Source of the DNA: Candidatus Curtissbacteria bacterium RIFOXYA1_FULL_41_14 | GTDB lineage: Bacteria; Patescibacteriota; Microgenomatia; Curtissbacterales; GWA2-41-24 | Assembly: GCA_001775095.1 (NCBI GenBank) | Contig: MFCA01000022.1 | Coordinates: forward strand, 2,162 to 66,161 | Direction: 5' to 3' | DNA: 64,000 nt | Shown here: piece by piece, positions 5,716-64,000 of the stretch | Position numbering within the stretch: the stretch's first letter is position 1 | How the letters are laid out: the number at the start of each line of letters is the position of its first letter | Position numbers and translations under genes: made by a program | The notes under the pieces: generated by a model | Told to the model about the DNA's origin: nothing | The model's database searches: none | What the model saw: only the letters and a program-made list of their open reading frames with translations

Positions 5716-5752
5716 CTCTGAAAAGAGATCCTTCGTCGAGTCAGACTCGACT
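5716..5752. repeat. Mini hairpin repeat AGATCCTTCGTCGAGTCAGACTCGACTCAGGATGAC, palindrome GTCGAGTC-A-GACTCGAC. A second copy lies at 45611-45646.
   Basis: Two near-identical copies read directly. The same hairpin is nested inside the element at 28115-28188. Confidence 0.55.
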
Positions 5753-5765
5753 CAGGATGACAGGA

Positions 5766-6289: not shown

Positions 6290-6400
6290 GATAGTCTATT
6301 GAAAACTATTATTCTTCGAACAAAGTGAGAAGTCTCACAGTTCTCGCTCCGGAGAGTACCAGCCGGTACCCTCCTACGCTCGAACAATACAATAACGGTT
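6290..6400. mobile_element. MITE-like palindromic element copy A. Core GGAGAGTACC-N-GGTAC(C)CTCC flanked by inverted TTATTCTTCGAACAA / TTGTTCGAGCG arms.
   Basis: Four copies in this window (6290-6400, 24961-25150, 34981-35095, 38245-38350) are alignable by eye in both orientations. Confidence 0.6.
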
Positions 6401-10912: not shown

Positions 10913-12082
10913 ATGGAGTTTCTCATCCTCTTAAGAAATCTGATTAACCGCTTTTTTTACAAAATTATTCTCAAGCAAATTTTTTTCAGAATCGATCCTG
11001 AAAACATGCACGATAGCATGGTTTCCTTTGGCGTTCTTTTGGGAAAGTATTGGTTAACTAGAAAAATTGTCGGGGCGTTTTTTTCTTATTCAAATAAAAC
11101 TTTGGAGCAAAAGATATTAGGGATTAAGTTTAAAAATCCCATTGGTCTTGGCGCTGGTTTTGATAAAGATGCGGTTCTAGTAGATATTTTGCCGTATGTT
11201 GGATTTGGTTTTGTTGAAGTTGGATCAATAACCGGAGAGCCTTGCAGTGGTAATCCGAGACCCAGGCTGTGGCGGTTGAAAAAATCCAAAGGTCTTGTCG
11301 TTAACTACGGATTGAAAAATGAAGGGTGTGAAAAAATTGCCAAACGACTCTTAGGGAAAAAATTTCAAGTTCCGGTTGGAATTAGTATTGCCAAAACAAA
11401 TAGTCCTAAAACCGTAAGTGATGACGCTGGAATTAACGACTACGTCAAAGCATTCGGTAAATTTGTCACAATAGGGGATTATTTTACAATTAATATCAGT
11501 TGCCCAAATGCCTTTGGCGGTCAGCCTTTTACTGATGCAAAACGACTAGATAAACTTATAGGAAAGATCGACAAAATTTCTACCAAAAAACCGATCTTTT
11601 TAAAAATCTCTCCTGATTTAACACATCGACAAGTTGATCGAATCATTGAGGTTTCTAAGCGTCATAAAGTAGACGGTTTTGTCTGCACGAATTTGACCAG
11701 TCAGCGGAACAACAAGAGGATAGTCGATAGACATGTTTCAAAAGAAGGCGGAATTAGCGGCAAAGTTGTAGAAGAGAAGGCTAATGATTTAATTTCCTAT
11801 ATTTACAAAAAAACGAAAGGTCGATACGTAATTATTGGTCTTGGCGGGGTTTTTAGCGCAGAGGACGCTTATAAAAAAATTAAACTAGGGGCGTCTCTAG
11901 TACAGTTGATTACCGGTATGATTTTTGAAGGTCCGCAGGTAATCAGTGAGATTAATCAGGGAGTGGTCAAGTTACTTAAAACAGACGGTCTCGAAAATGT
12001 TTCTCAAGCAATAGGGGTAGATAGACAGACAATTGACCCCACTTCGTCAAGTGAACTTGACTTCGAGGGGGCAAGCAGTTGA
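10913..12082 (+). CDS. pyrD: Dihydroorotate dehydrogenase. The last ~15 codons (IDPTSSSELDFEGASS) are encoded by a repeat element.
   Basis: KFKNPIGLGAGFDKDA, GFGFVEVGSIT and NISCPN are DHOD motifs. Confidence 0.75.
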   Translation: MEFLILLRNLINRFFYKIILKQIFFRIDPENMHDSMVSFGVLLGKYWLTRKIVGAFFSYSNKTLEQKILGIKFKNPIGLGAGFDKDAVLVDILPYVGFGFVEVGSITGEPCSGNPRPRLWRLKKSKGLVVNYGLKNEGCEKIAKRLLGKKFQVPVGISIAKTNSPKTVSDDAGINDYVKAFGKFVTIGDYFTINISCPNAFGGQPFTDAKRLDKLIGKIDKISTKKPIFLKISPDLTHRQVDRIIEVSKRHKVDGFVCTNLTSQRNNKRIVDRHVSKEGGISGKVVEEKANDLISYIYKKTKGRYVIIGLGGVFSAEDAYKKIKLGASLVQLITGMIFEGPQVISEINQGVVKLLKTDGLENVSQAIGVDRQTIDPTSSSELDFEGASS

Positions 12083-12085
12083 CAA
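12033..12085. repeat. Element TTGACCCCACTTCGTC-AAGTGAACTTGACTT-CGAGGGGGCAAGCAGTTGACAA. Paralogous copy at 28115-28188.
   Basis: Two copies aligned by eye. Both begin at or just before the stop of the upstream gene and end in a TTGACAA box just upstream of the next gene. Confidence 0.55.
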
Positions 12086-12903
12086 TAAAATTAATGCCCG
12101 ATTCTGAAGAACTCGACGAACTAAAGGAAACGCCAGGGGATCCAGCTGAGCCAGCGACAACGAAGGCGTCTCCTTTTTCACAAAAATCAAAGTCGCCGGA
12201 AGATCTTTTGGCTGAAGCTAAGATATTATCCAATTTATCAATCAGCTCACAAGAAGTAACTTCTCAGGGGAAAGAGGCATCTAGCTTTAATGGTTCCAAA
12301 TCTGGGGGAGGGGGCTTGGGGCAAGCAATGGGATTGTTTTTCGCAGCAGTTATTTTGATAATTATTTCAGGCACGGGTGGCTTTTATTTGGGTAAGAATT
12401 CATCTGTGCAAACAGTAAGTAATAATTCAGGAGTACCAGCAACTAATGAGCCTGCTGGGAGTTTGCAAAGTGCAGCTGAACCCACGCCAACACCATTGCT
12501 TGAGCAGCCGGACGCTATAGGAGATGAGGTTAAACTTGCTAGCGGTTTGACCTTAATTTTAGAGAGAGCATGGATTGACAGTGCTTATAGTAAGAGCAAA
12601 ACAGCATTACCAACAGAAGCACAGGTTAATGTTGAAGTGACTTTTACCAATAACGAATCAGTGGCGATGTCGTACACTCCATCGCTATTTTTGCTTAAGG
12701 ATTCAAAGAATTTAGAGTACAAGCCAGTTGCTGGTACTTCGGGGGAGTATAAGCCTTTAGTGTTGGGGTCACTTTTGCCCGAAGGATCTGTCAAAGGTGG
12801 AATCTCTTTTATCGTACCAAAAGGAGAGAAAGCTTTTAGATTGATTTATGAAGATGCAGAAGTGATTTTTAGTCTTTCCACACAAATTAACACCTCAAAC
12901 TAA
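12079..12903 (+). CDS. Hypothetical membrane-anchored protein (start probably ATG 12094)
   Basis: Acidic and S-rich N-terminus, one TM (LGQAMGLFFAAVILIIISG), extracytoplasmic C-terminal domain. Confidence 0.4.
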   Translation: MTIKLMPDSEELDELKETPGDPAEPATTKASPFSQKSKSPEDLLAEAKILSNLSISSQEVTSQGKEASSFNGSKSGGGGLGQAMGLFFAAVILIIISGTGGFYLGKNSSVQTVSNNSGVPATNEPAGSLQSAAEPTPTPLLEQPDAIGDEVKLASGLTLILERAWIDSAYSKSKTALPTEAQVNVEVTFTNNESVAMSYTPSLFLLKDSKNLEYKPVAGTSGEYKPLVLGSLLPEGSVKGGISFIVPKGEKAFRLIYEDAEVIFSLSTQINTSN

Positions 12904-13589
12904 AAAGTAAGATTTGTTGCTTTTTCAATAGCCACAATTGACGATTCTTCCTCAATTTTTTGGAGTTTATTGATAGTTATTGAATGTTTGTTAAAGGTGA
13001 GAACCTTCTCTTTTTGGAGTTTTTCGAGCGCCAGACTTGTCGTTTCCCGGCTCAGATTAGCAAGGGAAGCCAGGATTCGGTGAGTAAGGGGCAACCGAAT
13101 AACCAAATCACCATTTGTTTCTTTTCTGCCAAAACGCCGTCCTAGAACTAAAAGAACCGATATCAATTTCCCACGGGCATTTTCGGTCAGTAAGGCTTGG
13201 GTTAATCTAACAATTCCATCCAAGCCAATGTATGTACGTTTAGTTAAAGCGAAGAGTAATTTCGGATTGTTTTTGACCAGTTCCAATAGTTTTTCGCGGG
13301 GTGCTGTATAAACCACTGTGTCTGTTAAGCTTTCGAAAAAATAGAAGTTGGGTAGATTGCCGATAGCCCAGATCATCGGGAAATAAGTACCAGGTTTATA
13401 TATGTTGAAGGTAATTTCCCGGCCAGTTAGCGCAATTAAGTAAAGCCTAACGAAACCCTTTTTAAGAAAATATACTTCTTTTGGCTCTTCTTGCGCCCTC
13501 AGAATCATCTCGCCCTTTTTATAGGCTTGGGCCCGATTAAACTGAATAAAAAACTGCTCGTCTAGTTTAAAATATGTGTTTTTTTGCAA
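12900..13589 (-). CDS. Crp/Fnr-family transcriptional regulator
   Basis: cNMP-binding-like N-domain and a C-terminal HTH (RETTSLALEKLQKEKVL). Confidence 0.7.
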   Translation of the reverse strand: MQKNTYFKLDEQFFIQFNRAQAYKKGEMILRAQEEPKEVYFLKKGFVRLYLIALTGREITFNIYKPGTYFPMIWAIGNLPNFYFFESLTDTVVYTAPREKLLELVKNNPKLLFALTKRTYIGLDGIVRLTQALLTENARGKLISVLLVLGRRFGRKETNGDLVIRLPLTHRILASLANLSRETTSLALEKLQKEKVLTFNKHSITINKLQKIEEESSIVAIEKATNLTF

Positions 13590-21306: not shown

Positions 21307-21321
21307 AAGGGGTTGAAACCT

Positions 21322-21396
21322 ATATTGTTCGAGCCCTTCGTCGAAGCTCAGGGCGAGAACTGTCAGACTTCTCACTTTGTTCGAAGAAGAATAAGG
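21322..21396. mobile_element. MITE-like element variant with the same TTGTTCGAGC...TTGTTCGAAGAA arms as the other copies but a CCCTTCGTCGAAGCTCAGGGCGAG core
   Basis: Arms are shared with the copies at 34981-35095 and 24961-25150. The core belongs to the CTTCG...CTCAGG motif family. Confidence 0.5.
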
Positions 21397-21413
21397 TTAT
21401 CAACGGACTAAAA

Positions 21414-24960: not shown

Positions 24961-25150
24961 TTAGCTTTGAGCTTATTAACCCTTATTGTTCGAGCCCCTC
25001 GTTGAAACTCAGGACGAGAACAACATGCTTCGCATATTGTTCGAGCACAGGAGAGTACCATCCGGTACTCTCCGTAGCGAGAACTTTCTGACTTCTCACT
25101 TTGTCGAGTCTAACTCGACTTTGTTCGAAGAATAACAAGGTTTTCAACAA
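24961..25150. mobile_element. Composite, nested MITE-like element: the palindromic GGAGAGTACC core plus a CCCCTCGTTGAAACTCAGGACGAG module and a GTCGAGTCTAACTCGAC hairpin module
   Basis: Contains the arm motifs twice (TTATTGTTCGAGC at about 24983 and 25037), with different cores between them. Confidence 0.5.
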
Positions 25151-27671: not shown

Positions 27672-28118
27672 ATGCGCTACGATTTAATGGTTGCTGTTGG
27701 TATCAAGGATGCGGACTCACTTGCCGGCAAACTTGAGAAATTTATTAAAGATGCTGCGGCGCAAGAGGTAAAAGTTGAGAAGCTGGGCAAAAAGACCTTA
27801 GCTTATCCTATTGCCAAGCAGCTAGAGGCCGAGTATTTCCTGTTTAATTTCGAGGCCCCGGCAGAGGCAATTTCTGCAATTACTCAAAACCTAAGACTTG
27901 AGCGAGAGACAATATTGAGGTATCTTTTAACAAAGGTAACAAAAGTAACAAAAGGAACAAGGGGTACAAAGGGAACAAAAGAGTTAATAGAATCAGAGGG
28001 TGAGAAAACAAAAGAAACAGGGAAAGTTGTGGTAAAGACGGTAGTAAAGGCAGGTACAAAGGTAACGAAAGGAACAAAGGGTACAAAAGGAACAAAAGTG
28101 AAAGGAAAGAAAAGTTGA
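27672..28118 (+). CDS. rpsF: 30S ribosomal protein S6 with a lysine-rich low-complexity C-terminal extension
   Basis: MRYDLMVAVGIKDAD...KTLAYPIAKQLEAEYFLFNFEA is an S6 core. The tail is KVTKGTKGTKGTK. Confidence 0.8.
   Translation: MRYDLMVAVGIKDADSLAGKLEKFIKDAAAQEVKVEKLGKKTLAYPIAKQLEAEYFLFNFEAPAEAISAITQNLRLERETILRYLLTKVTKVTKGTRGTKGTKELIESEGEKTKETGKVVVKTVVKAGTKVTKGTKGTKGTKVKGKKS
27934..28100 (+). repeat. Two blocks of tandem 9-nt repeats (GGTAACAAA / AGGAACAAA / GGGTACAAA) inside rpsF, encoding (V/G)TKG repeats
   Basis: Read directly. The repeats are multiples of 3 and in-frame. Confidence 0.55.
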
Positions 28119-28188
28119 CCCCACTTCGTCGAGTCAGACTCGACTTCGTCAAGTGAAACTTGACTTAGAGGGGCAAGGCAATTGACAA
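28115..28188. repeat. Paralogue of the 12033-12085 element carrying a nested GAGTCAGACTCGACTTCGTC hairpin insertion flanked by the direct repeat CTTCGTC
   Basis: Alignment with 12033-12085. The extra 20 nt equals the core of the mini-hairpin repeat. Confidence 0.55.
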
Positions 28189-28200
28189 TTAATAAACGAC

Positions 28201-28764
28201 ATGGCAAGTAGAGCATCGTTGAACAAAGTATTATTAATTGGAAATCTGACAAGAGATCCGGAGTTGAGATATACGCCTTCAGGCGCGGCGGTTTGTTCTT
28301 TCGGGCTGGCTACAAATAGAGTTTACGTTGCTTCTGACGGTACTAAAAAAGAGGAAGCGGAATTTATCAGGATCGTTTCCTGGAATAAACTGGCCGAGCT
28401 TTGTTCGCAGCTTCTTTCAAAAGGCAGGAAAGTTTATGTTGAAGGAAGATTGCAGACGAGAAGCTGGGAGACCCCCGATGGAATAACTAAGCAGACAACG
28501 GAAGTAGTTATTGATGACATGAGAATTCTGGATTCCCGCAGAAGTTTCGAGGAAGCCAGCACGGGGGAAAATATCCCTTATATAGAAAATACATCTGCAA
28601 GCCAGACAAAAGTCAAAGAGCCATCTTCCTTCGCTAAAGCTACGGAGGACAAGGAGAGTCTAAGGGTCAAAGAGTCAAAGGGGACAAAAGGGTCAAAAGA
28701 GCCAAAGGATTCAAATGGAGGCGGAGATGAGGATAAAATAGATTTAGACGATTTGCCATTTTAA
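28201..28764 (+). CDS. ssb: Single-stranded DNA-binding protein
   Basis: OB-fold N-terminus LNKVLLIGNLTRDPELRYTPSGAAVCSF...W. Acidic tail ending in DDLPF. Confidence 0.8.
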   Translation: MASRASLNKVLLIGNLTRDPELRYTPSGAAVCSFGLATNRVYVASDGTKKEEAEFIRIVSWNKLAELCSQLLSKGRKVYVEGRLQTRSWETPDGITKQTTEVVIDDMRILDSRRSFEEASTGENIPYIENTSASQTKVKEPSSFAKATEDKESLRVKESKGTKGSKEPKDSNGGGDEDKIDLDDLPF

Positions 28765-31367: not shown

Positions 31368-31403
31368 AATTCGGAATTTCAAATTTCAAATTTCAAATTT
31401 CAA

Positions 31404-31458
31404 ATCCCAGTGCACACCCCCGGGGTGCGCGTCGGCAATCGTCTATTGCTCACCCCGG
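31404..31458. repeat. Double palindrome CACACCCCCGGGGTGCG-N22-CTCACCCCGGGGGTGAGC lying between the convergent genes htrA and dedA. Likely a bidirectional terminator and a member of a mobile repeat family whose paralogue sits inside prfA.
   Basis: Palindromes read directly. Preceded by the hairpin TTCCGAATAAAATTCGGAA and (AATTTCA)x4. Confidence 0.6.
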
Positions 31459-31472
31459 GGGTGAGCTATGAA

Positions 31473-33599: not shown

Positions 33600-34517
33600 T
33601 TATTCATGTAGGGCATCAATTATTTTATCCAATTTGCCATTCATTACTTCTTCCAGGTTGTGCCATGACTTATTAATTCTATGGTCTGTAATGCGATTCT
33701 GGGGATAATTATAAGTGCGGATTTTTTCGGAGCGGTCGCCCGTGCCCAGTTGGGCTGAGCGTTGAGAACTGAGTTGAGAGGATTGCTTTTCTTCTTCAAG
33801 TTGATAAATTTTTGAGCGCAAGATTCCCATAGCGATTTCGCGGTTTTGGCCTTGTGAACGTTCGGTTTGAGCCTTAACAACAATTCCGGTCGGTTTGTGT
33901 TTAATTCTGACGGCGGTTGAAACTTTATTAACATTTTGACCGCCGTGGCCGCCGGAACGGAAAGCTTCAAATTCAATATCGGCAGGATCAATAATAACTT
34001 GAGTCGGAGGTACTTCCGGCAAAATCGCAACTGTAGCAGTTGAGGTATGAATACGGCCGGATGACTCGGTGACAGGAACTCTTTGAACCCGGTGGACACC
34101 TGATTCATGTTGAAGTTTTTCAAAAACGTTTTTGCCGGAAATTTTAACAATTACAGTCTTGATATTTCCAAGTCCGCCTTCGGTGCAGTCCAATTCTTCA
34201 AACTGCCATCTGTTGTTGACGGCAAACTTTTGATACATTCGCAGAAGATCGGCTGCGAAAAGCCCGGCTTCATCGCCGCCGGCAGCGGAGCGGATTTCTA
34301 GAATGACAGACGAGTTTGTGGGCCCACCCCCGGGGTGCGATCCGGGTGACGTCAAGACTTCACCCCGGGGGTGAGTCAGGGCAATTTTTTCTTCTTCAAG
34401 CTTCTCTATTTCTTCCTGCGCGAGCTCGGCCATAGAAGGGTCAGCTGACACTAATTCTTGAGCTTCTTTAATCTTCTTTTCAATATTTTCAATTTGTTGT
34501 TTTTGATAATCGGTCAT
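33600..34517 (-). CDS. prfA: Peptide chain release factor 1 with an in-frame palindromic-element insertion in the N-terminal domain
   Basis: GGQ motif [14 protein letters not shown]1-type PVT tripeptide in [16 protein letters not shown]. The extra segment [21 protein letters not shown] is encoded by the element. Confidence 0.85.
34318..34384. mobile_element. Double-palindrome element (CACCCCCGGGGTG ... CACCCCGGGGGTG) inserted in-frame within prfA. Paralogue of 31404-31458.
   Basis: Same two palindromes and a similar spacer as the intergenic copy. The ORF remains open through it. Confidence 0.65.
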
Positions 34518-34614
34518 AAAAGTTAATTGTTATATTGTTGAATTGTTAAATTGTTAGAGATTCATTTTCTATAGAACAATATGGCAATATAGCAATTCAA
34601 CAATTTAGGATTAT

Positions 34615-34980: not shown

Positions 34981-35095
34981 TGTTAAAAACCCTTATTGTT
35001 CGAGCACAGGAGAGTACCGTCCGGTACTCTCCGCAGCGAGAACTCAAACTTCTCACGTTGTTCGAAGAATAATAGTTTTCAATAGACTATCGATG
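34981..35095. mobile_element. MITE-like palindromic element copy C
   Basis: CCCTTATTGTTCGAGCACAGGAGAGTACCGTCCGGTACTCTCCGCAGCGAGAAC...TTCTCACGTTGTTCGAAGAATAA, a near-perfect RC of copy D. Confidence 0.65.
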
Positions 35096-35977: not shown

Positions 35978-36234
35978 TTTAATTTCTAATTTCTAATTTC
36001 TAAATCCTAAACAAATCAAAATGACCAAAATTCAAAACAATTTTAAGAGAAATTTATCTTTTTTGATCATTTGATATTTGAATTTTGAAATTGTTTAGAG
36101 TTTAGAATTTAGAGTTTAGAATTTTTATTAGTCATTAGGTTAATATCAGCATGAGCTTCGCTCATCTGATATATCAGTAAACTTCATTAGATTTTTATAT
36201 TAATTACAATAATTGAAGTTTAGCTGATATTAGG
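35978..36234. repeat. ~260-bp AT-rich intergenic element, copy 1, in reverse orientation and abutting the eamA start
   Basis: RC aligns by eye with 59764-60028. Contains the CTAAACTCTAAATTCTAAAC and TTAGGATTTAGAAATTAGAAATT blocks and a CTGATATATCAG-hairpin-CTGATAT module. Confidence 0.65.
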
Positions 36235-38134: not shown

Positions 38135-38445
38135 AATTTCTAATTGCCTTAATTACTAAAAACCCTAAACTCTAAATTCTAAACTCCTGCCTGCCGGCAG
38201 GCAGGCTAAACAATTTCAAAATACAAAACTCAAATGATCAAAAAAGAGATAGTCTATTGAAATCCTTATTCTTCGAACAACGTGAGAAGTTTGAGTTCTC
38301 GCTGCGGAGAGTACCGTCCGGTACTCTCCTGCGCTCGAACAATATGTTTATCATCCTGTTTTGAATTTTAGATTTACCTCATTTGGATTTATTTAGGATT
38401 TAGAAATTAGAAATTAGAATTTTACTCTTTAGGTCTTTTAGCTTA
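38135..38445. repeat. AT-rich element copy 2, interrupted by a nested MITE-like copy D (38245-38350) and an extra CCTGCCTGCCGGCAGGCAGG palindrome. Lies between divergent gene starts.
   Basis: Both flanks align with copy 3. The MITE-like copy D (38245-38350) sits between them. Confidence 0.6.
38245..38350. mobile_element. MITE-like palindromic element copy D, nested inside the AT-rich element
   Basis: Reverse complement of copy C. Confidence 0.65.
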
Positions 38446-45610: not shown

Positions 45611-45646
45611 AGATCCTTCGTCGAGTTGGACTCGACTCAGGATGAC
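45611..45646. repeat. Mini hairpin repeat, second copy (AGATCCTTCGTCGAGTTGGACTCGACTCAGGATGAC). Its ATG is the first in-frame start of the downstream ORF.
   Basis: Near-identical to 5716-5752. Confidence 0.55.
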
Positions 45647-45662
45647 TTTTCTGGAGGAATTA

Positions 45663-59763: not shown

Positions 59764-60028
59764 ATTGATCTAATATCAGCTAAACTTCAATTATTATAAT
59801 TAATATAAAAATCTAATGAAGTTTACTGATATATCAGATTCGCCGAAGGCGAAGGCTGATATTAACCTAATGACTTAACAAAATCCTAAACTCTAAATTC
59901 TAAACTCTAAACAATATCAAAATTCAAATGTTCCAAAAAATAATTAAACTTAAAATTGTTTTGAATTTTGTATTTTGATTATTTGGATTTATTTAGGATT
60001 TAGGATTTAGAAATTAGAAATTTCAAAT
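59764..60028. repeat. ~260-bp AT-rich intergenic element, copy 3, filling the whole spacer between the citrate-synthase-like gene's stop and the ruvC ATG
   Basis: Aligns with the RC of 35978-36234 and with the flanks of 38135-38445. Confidence 0.65.
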
Positions 60029-60553: not shown

Positions 60554-60560
60554 CTGCTTC

Positions 60561-60605
60561 TGATACTTCTGATACTTTTGATACTTTTGATACTTTTGAT
60601 ACCTC
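60561..60605 (+). repeat. Five tandem copies of the 9-mer TGATACTTT between ruvC and the next gene
   Basis: TGATACTTCTGATACTTTTGATACTTTTGATACTTTTGATACCTC read directly. Confidence 0.7.
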
Positions 60606-60618
60606 TGGAGGTGGGGAA

Positions 60619-63424: not shown

Positions 63425-63470
63425 AGGGAGGTTAACATTTGACATTTGACAATTGACAAATGACATTAGG
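63425..63470. repeat. Iteron-like cluster of (A)ATTGACA repeats. A second cluster is at 63806-63850.
   Basis: GGTTAACATTTGACATTTGACAATTGACAAATGACATT and GGGCACAATTGACAATTAACAATTGACATTTAACATT read directly. Confidence 0.55.
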
Positions 63471-64000
63471 TACAAGTTAGCTTCAAAAATTTTTCCAAAA
63501 AAATAAAGGCAGGGCAGGCGGAGTAGGGGGTGTAGTTTACATCAAGCGAAGCGAGATGATATAGTTTGATACAAAGCGTGAAAAAGGGTCAAAGGAAAGC
63601 GTGAAAAACATTATCGAGTCATAGACTATTAACTATAAGGTGTTGTTGATTTCTACCTGCAAAGTTATAATCGGGCTTGGACATAGAGAACTATAAGGTT
63701 CTTTATTCTCTAAACTCAGCCTTGGGTCTCTTTTTAAGCAGATGATGACTATGGGTGCTAAGGGTTCAAAATAGCGTTTTGAGAGGTTTCGGGGGAAGTG
63801 CCTTTTGAGGGCACAATTGACAATTAACAATTGACATTTAACATTTTTCTTTTGCATCTTTTGTCCTATTACTCCCTACGGAAAAGAGACTAATGTTGCT
63901 GTTGCCTATACGTCGCACAATGATACTTTTGCGACGTAAGTCGTGCGCGAATAGGGCGCAAAGCTGGTTTTCTGGTTGCTGTTCTCTGGTTGCTGTTTTC

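Follow-up and report, generated by a model that had tools for sequence, protein, structure and literature searches.

A small modular family of intergenic hairpin repeats in Curtissbacteria-like Patescibacteria with a candidate leaderless promoter in its 3' half

Two copies of a short hairpin-forming repeat, termed A1 and A2, were analysed in a 64,000-nucleotide (nt) stretch of contig MFCA01000022.1 from Candidatus Curtissbacteria bacterium RIFOXYA1_FULL_41_14, an uncultured groundwater organism of the Microgenomates; this stretch is referred to below as the window. Copy A1 (TTGACCCCACTTCGTCAAGTGAACTTGACTTCGAGGGGGCAAGCAGTTGACAAT) is located 3' of the natural end of pyrD and 5' of a gene with a DUF4352 domain, and copy A2 occupies the gap between rpsF and ssb (Table 1). 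The two are paralogues and real members of one hairpin-forming repeat family, which is a new family of a known kind of bacterial repeat and not a new class of element. That they stand for a small modular intergenic hairpin repeat family of Curtissbacteria-like Patescibacteria whose 3' half provides the gene that follows with its promoter is a reading to which we give about even chances. From the sequences we infer its promoter activity, any role at the 3' ends of RNA and its means of spread.

Both copies were present where a preceding sequence-only note (the original prediction) had placed them, and the paralogy proposed there was borne out. An exact 16-mer, TTGACCCCACTTCGTC, is common to A1 and A2 and has no occurrence in the window beyond 12033 and 28115; when as many as three mismatches were tolerated, 0.34 chance matches were expected and two or more were reached in 3 of 100 shuffles. 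With 20 nt of A2 set aside, the alignment of the two copies spans the whole length of about 55 nt with few differences. These 20 nt (GAGTCAGACTCGACTTCGTC, 28131-28150) are the nested unit that had been described for the ssb copy, and the direct repeat CTTCGTC is indeed found on either side of it (28124-28130 and 28144-28150). The extra unit itself therefore stands, but its description as an inserted mini-hairpin is only one of two equally fitting accounts, as the two units of A2 (GACCCCACTTCGTCGAGTCA and GACTCGACTTCGTCAAGTGA) are 80% alike and would fit a tandem duplication just as well. Copy A1 was unchanged in the strain contigs L001, L004 and L006 and in L023, L027 and L030, and A2 was unchanged across eight strain contigs, among which no polymorphism of this copy was seen.

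Comparison with relatives (L-numbered contigs, obtained via pyrD homologues, ssb homologues and scans for the frame pattern) established the modular construction of the element. A conserved frame runs CAnTTGAC, CCCC...GGGG, CAAG, CAnTTGAC, AAT, and encloses an interior that varies in units or is unrelated between copies. Within the frame TTGaCCCC pairs with GGGGCAA, the palindromic CAATTG of both sides providing an alternative pairing, and the interior is built from 20-nt units of the form CTTCGTCrAGTnnnACTyGA. One such unit is present in A1 and in the L021, L007 and L040 copies and two are present in A2 and L009, with identical end modules throughout. As RNA, the A1 hairpin folds at -19.4 kcal/mol (z = -3.2), and most copies fold more stably than shuffled sequences (z -2.7 to -4.6). 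Compensatory changes were seen both in the inner stem (GTCGAG/CTCGAC, GTCAAG/CTTGAC and ACCGAG/CTCGGT) and in the basal stem, where CCCC/GGGG is replaced by CCCT/AGGG in L007. The minimum free energies of the sense and opposite strands lay within 2.2 kcal/mol of each other, in either direction; a strand-specific RNA structure was accordingly rejected, and because folding is equal on both strands, RNA structure and DNA palindrome are indistinguishable on this measure.

Across species, copies were found at four different loci, and orthologous loci in other relatives were without one; such non-orthologous copies with presence/absence polymorphism are a feature of miniature inverted-repeat transposable elements (MITE). 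Further copies between tandem genes, for which the original prediction had proposed to look, were found in relatives. At the DUF4352 locus of L009 (PyrD 82% identical), a PBP-family gene separates pyrD from the DUF4352 gene, and a two-unit element stands directly 5' of the latter, itself preceded by a second hairpin element (TTGACCCTTCGA...TCGAAGGGTGAC). In L011 (PyrD 76% identical) the frame is found 3' of the pyrD stop (TTTGACCCCG...CGGGGCGAGCATTTGACAAT) around an unrelated interior of 62 nt, the DUF4352 gene having its own TATAAT box 75 nt past the element, and no element was found at this locus in L013 or L008. At the ssb locus, L040 (SSB 80% identical) carries a partner hairpin followed by a one-unit element; no element was present there in L012 (79% SSB identity), L041, L013, L014/L015 or L016, in which the rpsF-ssb gap is 0-20 nt. 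When GAAAAGTTGACAGATAGATAATTGACATGG of L012 was set against the window, which reads GAAAAGTTGAC, then the additional CCCA...GGCAATTGAC, then AATTAATAAACGACATGG, A2 was recognisable by alignment as an insertion beside a resident TTGAC that already contained the rpsF stop codon. In another Curtissbacterium (L019/L021) a copy lies 3' of a 593-amino-acid (aa) gene, which we take to encode a carbamoyltransferase, and 5' of a 59-aa open reading frame (ORF) whose product is presumably membrane-protein-like. In the L007 species a copy lies 5' of a pilin-like gene (GFTLVELLVV motif); the intergenic region is divergent there, and no gene of the same direction precedes the copy on its strand, which also applies to the L017 copy. 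The frame was retained around unrelated interiors in L011 and in two other Patescibacteria genomes (L017 and L020). A strict-frame scan of genome contigs returned three real matches and one chance match; the same scan of metagenome contigs returned two distinct real loci and four G+C-rich chance matches, and missed A2. Contigs L018, L022, L024, L028 and L031 were rejected as copies, being chance matches in G+C-rich coding DNA.

The pyrD ORF (10913-12082) runs through A1, its stop TGA (12080-12082) lying within the second TTGAC, whereas that of rpsF (27672-28118, Pfam Ribosomal_S6), TGA 28116-28118, lies within the first TTGAC of A2. Of 120 pyrD homologues listed, the C-termini of the best 40 were compared, and among these the tail TIDPTSSSELDFEGASS was found only in P0001, P0002, P0004 and P0007, which are variants of the PyrD of the window species itself, with identities to the query reaching 100%. 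The remaining full-length homologues of this set, 369-392 aa long, end near ...AIGVDNK, about 15 residues earlier. As the orthologues inspected lack it, the PyrD tail is, on this comparison, encoded by the element, in agreement with the original prediction, and the orthologues that share the tail without the element, which would have refuted that prediction, were not seen among the 40; the length of 15 residues given there did not match its own string, which has 16. An insert of 46 nt would have moved the pyrD stop into the second TTGAC, with the 15-residue PyrD tail as a by-product.

The element has a fixed position relative to start codons. The ATGs of ssb and of the DUF4352 gene are set by conserved N-termini, that of the latter (ATG 12094) by MPDSE/MPDF, which is kept in L009, L011 and L013. 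Given this conservation in three relatives, the start at TTG 12079, at which the ORF list and some gene calls begin the DUF4352 gene so that it overlaps the pyrD stop, is judged to be a miscall. The TTGACAAT box ends 7 nt before ATG 12094 in A1 and 11 nt before ATG 28201 in A2. The TTGACAA sequence, for which a distance of 15-22 nt to the next start had been given, begins 15 nt (A1) and 19 nt (A2) from it. Read literally, the promoter proposed in the original prediction would use it as the -35 box of the next gene. This could not be upheld, because the conserved ATGs follow the box by 7-11 nt, a spacing that is too short, and no -10 box fits.

A different pair of hexamers does suit these starts. 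In both window copies the 3' arm of the last hairpin contains TTGACT, and GACAAT follows after 18 nt at the end of the element (12057-12086 and 28160-28189). The pair matches 9 of 12 sigma-70-type consensus positions, which was the threshold of the promoter scan, and the A at position 2 and the T at position 6 of the -10 are both present. In L009, L021, L007 and L040 the two hexamers have the same arrangement, 17-18 nt apart (17 in two relatives). Each of the six copies of the CTTGACTT subfamily has a real gene start 7-11 nt past GACAAT in the same orientation: 7 nt for the DUF4352 genes next to A1 and in L009 and for the pilin-like gene of L007, 9 nt for the 59-aa ORF of L019/L021, and 11 nt for ssb next to A2 and in L040. 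Furthermore, L013, which is without the element, has TTTACA-17-TACAAT-7-ATG before the same conserved DUF4352 ATG, and L011 has TATAAT-7-ATG, so that GACAAT occupies the native -10 position. In L007 the promoter of the gene, which has no Shine-Dalgarno (SD) sequence, must be within the element, as the copy is in a divergent intergenic region. Leaderless-type starts are common in the window, in which an SD-like motif precedes 8 of 53 ATG-started ORFs, and 13 strong -10 boxes were found 6-10 nt 5' of the ATG among the 53, against about 0.6 per position elsewhere; promoter-like sites numbered 64 against 40.8 in shuffles and 62 against 37.8. These counts suggest that leaderless-type, SD-less starts dominate in this Curtissbacterium. 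The 3' half of the element is the probable source of both the -35 and the spacer of a promoter of leaderless type, with GACAAT of the TTGACAAT box as its -10.

In the proposed mechanism, the element would have reached each locus by insertion or copying beside a resident TTGAC, and its interior would grow and shrink by whole units. The TTGACT of the last hairpin arm would then serve as -35, the 3' basal stem as the 17-18-nt spacer and GACAAT as -10, and the ATG 7-11 nt further on would give a leaderless mRNA or one with a leader of 4-5 nt, the latter being expected for ssb because of its GACAAT-ATG distance of 11 nt. The transcript of the upstream gene would carry the hairpin at its 3' terminus, where it may stall or stabilise the RNA; a canonical intrinsic terminator it is not.

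Several observations weigh against this reading. A 9/12 match is weak, about 40 such matches being found per 20 kb of shuffled sequence, and GACAAT, with four of six consensus positions, is a weak -10; the 11 nt at ssb are more than a strictly leaderless start would lead one to expect, and the translational coupling of ssb to rpsF in relatives makes a separate ssb promoter unnecessary there. The L011 and L017 copies, with their other interiors, offer no convincing -35 at a suitable spacing; in L020 it is the TTGACA at the end of the element that would act as -35 for a TATTAT. Copies are few, with one strict match per genome in three Patescibacteria genomes and only two distinct loci from the strict-frame metagenome scan. 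The family has no known transposase (no transposase search was made), no unambiguous empty site was obtained, and the TTGAC direct repeat could stem from pre-existing CAnTTGA heptamer tracts.

An alternative explanation is that the element is a selfish or neutral palindromic insertion beside TTGAC, similar to a MITE or to a repetitive extragenic palindrome (REP), with no regulation, read-through from pyrD or rpsF and incidental hexamers. Presence and absence among close relatives, the varying number of units and the weakness of the 9/12 promoter match would all follow, and equal folding of both strands is as it should be for a DNA palindrome. Other palindromic repeats exist in the genome, one of them within the RF1 coding sequence. 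The CAnTTGAC direct repeat is identical on both flanks in L019, L017 and L011, which also speaks for insertion; more generally CAnTTGA(C) flanks the element on both sides with 0-2 mismatches, but CAnTTGA tracts also occur without a hairpin, as at 63430-63466 of the window, and target duplication is therefore indistinguishable from insertion into a tract. The element is often in or beside such heptamer tracts, with three units 5' of it in L019 and three in L007. Its inverted termini (TTGaCCCC/GGGGCAA) are about 8 nt long, imperfect, and likewise just the base of the hairpin. A neutral insertion does not, however, account for the fact that six of six subfamily copies share one orientation and lie 7-11 nt from the real ATG of an SD-less gene, that GACAAT is at the position of the orthologous -10 box, or that the downstream gene in the divergent L007 region must have its promoter in that very stretch. 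We regard it as a possible explanation of some weight, though a rather unlikely one.

A bolder variant of insertion, which we put forward tentatively and think improbable, is a mobile cassette of hairpin plus leaderless promoter, in which the frame would be recognised by some recombinase or transposase of Patescibacteria, carry variable cargo hairpins and duplicate a 7-bp CAnTTGA target. If this were true, the heptamer tracts would be footprints of repeated insertion and excision, and an arrival between stop and start codons would turn translationally coupled operon genes such as rpsF-ssb into separately transcribed leaderless units, a way for reduced genomes to rewire operons.

The original prediction had considered that the element may double as a terminator and promoter cassette. 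This proposal is partly supported: the promoter role is plausible, and the terminator role was not borne out. Stable hairpins are indeed found 3' of genes, at the pyrD and rpsF stops, yet the stem is followed by CAAGCAGTTGACAATAAAA in place of a U/T run and neither copy was called by the terminator scan, so a canonical intrinsic terminator was rejected. Hairpin-plus-T-run terminators are not clearly enriched in the window (28 against 18.4 in shuffles; 20 against 21.6). A non-canonical role at RNA 3' ends is conceivable, but nothing observed speaks for it. In its literal form, which combines a rho-independent terminator for the upstream gene with a promoter that has TTGACAA as its -35, the proposal draws on the G+C-rich hairpin right after or over the stop codon, on the identity of TTGACA with the -35 consensus and on L020, in which the terminal TTGACA is 17 nt from TATTAT. 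It would, however, place the -10 and the start site within coding sequence, where no -10 was found, and starts more than 30 nt downstream are excluded by the conserved N-termini. In this form we consider it very improbable.

It was also possible that the hairpin acts within a polycistronic mRNA as an intercistronic structure, either as a processing or stability site of the RNase III type or as a bridge from stop to start that preserves coupling of SD-less genes. The upstream stop is part of the hairpin's 5' foot, and from the 3' foot it is 20-25 nt to the ATG, a distance matching the 20 nt from stop to start in the hairpin-less L012; the stems are stable and kept by compensatory changes, and UUCG and GAAA tetraloop-like loops are present (L017, L009a). 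This is difficult to reconcile with the lack of a G-U bias towards the sense strand, with the L007 and L017 copies, which have no upstream cistron in their divergent regions, and with the lack of an Rfam match, and we hold such a role to be unlikely. At gathering thresholds, Rfam returned only a tRNA-Leu for the whole window, as did ARAGORN. In E-value mode the hits near A2 were mir-3146 (16.5 bits, threshold 96) and Gut-1 (15.4 bits, threshold 50), both at E of about 0.8, and nothing meaningful was found around a second repeat family of the window, the B repeat. A known RNA family and a tRNA-like element were rejected on these results. An S6:S18 ribosomal-protein leader was likewise rejected, the Rfam search being negative and the idea failing because the same element lies before unrelated genes. 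Programmed ribosomal bypass of the T4 gene 60 type between the TTGAC repeats was discounted, as the preceding codons differ in A2 (AGT and AAT) and pyrD reads straight through at A1. TIGR-Tas arrays, raised by the literature on the Candidate Phyla Radiation (CPR), were rejected, their architecture being unrelated.

The palindromes GTCAAGTGAACTTGAC or the repeated TTGAC could in principle serve as an operator and be bound by a dimeric protein such as the Crp/Fnr-type regulator whose gene is at 12900-13589 on the minus strand. The palindrome overlaps the candidate -35, and synteny links a Crp-family gene to the DUF4352 gene. The loop length varies, however (TGAA, TGAAA, TAAA, TAAAACA), so that half-site spacing is not kept; the half-sites change by compensatory substitution and are not conserved, and the element is also found at ssb and other loci unrelated to the regulator. 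An operator of FNR/CRP type was rejected on the wrong orientation of its half-sites and their variable spacing, and we attach almost no probability to operators of this general kind.

By sequence, the element belongs to none of its nearest analogues in behaviour (Correia elements, BOX, REP/REPIN and putative mobile promoters), nor to any Rfam family. Correia repeat enclosed elements (CREE) of Neisseria are 100-155 bp long, end in inverted repeats of 26 bp, duplicate a TA target and number in the hundreds. Like the present element they are short palindromic intergenic repeats; their ends, as proposed here too, can create a promoter for the adjacent gene, and they are co-transcribed as a hairpin, sometimes overlapping ORFs; the element described here differs in its length of 53-75 nt, inverted termini of about 8 nt, a flanking CAnTTGAC repeat and few copies, and is not similar to them in sequence. 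The modular build is shared with the BOX elements of Streptococcus pneumoniae, which have conserved ends around internal units that vary in number, form a stable hairpin and are found between genes, close to gene starts. Their modules, of about 45-60 nt, are unrelated in sequence. The architecture is thus BOX-like without any sequence relation, the internal unit here being 20 nt and the end a -10-like box abutting a leaderless start. Rickettsia palindromic elements (RPE) are in-frame insertions of 100-150 bp inside ORFs. A palindrome translated within a host protein is common to both, as in the PyrD tail and in a palindrome at 34322-34375 in RF1, but the PyrD extension arises from a displaced stop codon. 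With REP/REPIN sequences the element shares a short imperfect extragenic palindrome, a conserved 5'-foot motif (here TTGAC) and compensatory stem change. A genome with REPs has a RAYT gene and tens to hundreds of REP copies, many of them in inverted pairs (PMC8049555), in contrast to an apparently low copy number and a single orientation relative to the downstream gene here; the window contains 2 copies in 64 kb, no inverted pairs were found in it or in the fragments of relatives, and no RAYT was seen, though no search aimed at one was made. Putative mobile promoters are homologous upstream sequences before non-homologous genes, within and between genomes, and the element shares this trait, being found upstream of a DUF4352 gene, ssb, a pilin-like gene and a small ORF. 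Correia elements are cited in the survey of Matus-Garcia, Nijveen and van Passel (2012) as mobile elements that bear promoters and may overlap an ORF; the survey itself was confined to positions -150 to -50 and to matches of 50 nt or longer with an identity of at least 80% (PMC3575422). Start-abutting elements like this one were excluded by these settings, and the survey had no CPR genomes at its disposal.

A literature search for leaderless genes or hairpin repeats in CPR returned nothing relevant. To our knowledge, almost nothing is known of how CPR/Patescibacteria genes are transcribed and translated, and the window suggests that a small hairpin repeat travels with, or settles on, the -35/-10 region of SD-less genes, from which a specific promoter model follows that is open to testing. 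In annotation, neither the PyrD tail of 15 residues nor the RF1 segment is a functional protein feature, both being repeat-derived.

Table 1. Positions of the element copies, their parts, the adjoining features and other repeats in the window
Feature	Position	Strand	Remarks
Copy A1, whole element	12033-12086	+	Order TTGAC, compound hairpin, CAAGCAG, TTGACAAT
A1 compound hairpin	12037-12071	+	Basal stem CCCC (12037-40)/GGGG (12067-71); inner GTCAAG (12046-51)-TGAA-CTTGAC (12056-61)
PyrD C-terminal extension	12035-12082	+	Element-encoded, DPTSSSELDFEGASS plus stop; no counterpart in the orthologues inspected
TTGACT, candidate -35, A1	12057-12062	+	3' arm of inner hairpin; promoter scan 9/12, 18-nt spacer
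GACAAT, candidate -10, A1	12081-12086	+	Inside TTGACAAT box; 7 nt 5' of ATG
DUF4352 gene	12094-12903	+	3' of A1; no SD; conserved start MPDSE
Copy A2, whole element	28115-28189	+	rpsF/ssb gap; same frame as A1 plus 20 nt
A2 mini-hairpin (extra unit)	28128-28144	+	GTCGAGT-CAG-ACTCGAC; from sequence and fold
A2 second hairpin	28148-28164	+	GTCAAGT-GAA-ACTTGAC; 3' arm contains TTGACT
TTGACT, candidate -35, A2	28160-28165	+	3' arm of second hairpin; promoter scan
GACAAT, candidate -10, A2	28184-28189	+	11 nt 5' of ssb ATG; layout repeated in L040
Mini-hairpin unit CTTCGTCGAGTCAGACTCGACT	5731-5752	+	In another frame, ATCCT..AGGAT; 5' of TTGACA promoter-like site
Mini-hairpin unit	25099-25120	+	Nested in B repeat; ACTTTGT direct repeat on flanks
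Mini-hairpin unit	45616-45637	+	In frame ATCCT..AGGAT; between lspA (stop 45603) and rluD (ATG 45642)
B repeat	21317-21400	+	
B repeat	24978-25150	+	
B repeat	34990-35080	+	
B repeat	6300-6395	-	
B repeat	38255-38350	-	

Features of the genes around the element were also recorded. The rpsF product has a long C-terminal tail rich in Lys, Gly and Thr, which derives from a 9-nt repeat, (ACAAAGGTA)n, at 27921-28114; rpsF of L012, L013 and L040 ends in similar repeats, and the 9-nt repeat is found again at 28675 and 60507. In one relative, a phage-like gene block lies upstream of and adjoins the ychF-rpsF-ssb region (L014 833-8594 and L015 1-3157), with HTH, Terminase_2, Omega_Repress and Resolvase/Recombinase genes, the last gene encoding a large serine recombinase.

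The window contains further repeats. The B family, of about 95-110 nt, is present five times in 64 kb, without a consistent orientation relative to genes, and has a core of ATTGTTCGAGC, a variable hairpin and GCGAGAAC..ACTTCTCACkTTGTTCGAAGAATAA..GTTTTCAAyAGAC. Its outer inverted repeat is long, a three-way junction is predicted, no Rfam match was obtained and it looks like a MITE; in one copy the 5' module is duplicated and a mini-hairpin is nested. The palindrome pair CACCCCCGGGGTG...CACCCCGGGGGTG is intergenic at 31412-31465 and, at 34322-34375, falls within the RF1 gene (33600-34517, minus strand), where it encodes 18 residues in a linker that differs among orthologues and so provides a second palindromic repeat translated as protein. 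The hairpin ATCCTTC-GTCGAGTnnnACTCGAC-TCAGGAT-GAC has two copies, at 5726-5762 and 45611-45647, the latter filling the 38-nt lspA-rluD gap with the called rluD ATG (45642) inside its 3' arm. Tandem tracts of heptamers or octamers based on TTGAC/ACAAT were seen at 63430-63466, 63812-63850 and 34518-34565 of the window and in relatives (L009 1995-2020, L021 2186-2206, and L007 6035-6056 on the minus strand), for example CATTTGA CATTTGA CAATTGA CAAATGA, or AACAATTn four times before the RF1 ATG; they lie 3' of stops and 5' of starts and place -35-like and -10-like hexamers in series. Short A+T-rich tandem repeats are found between genes at 31375-31405, 36059-36125, 38357-38423, 59957-60028 and about 60560-60610, and include AATTTCA repeated four times, runs of TTTAGAA/TTAGGAT and a GATACTTTT repeat just 5' of GTG 60619.

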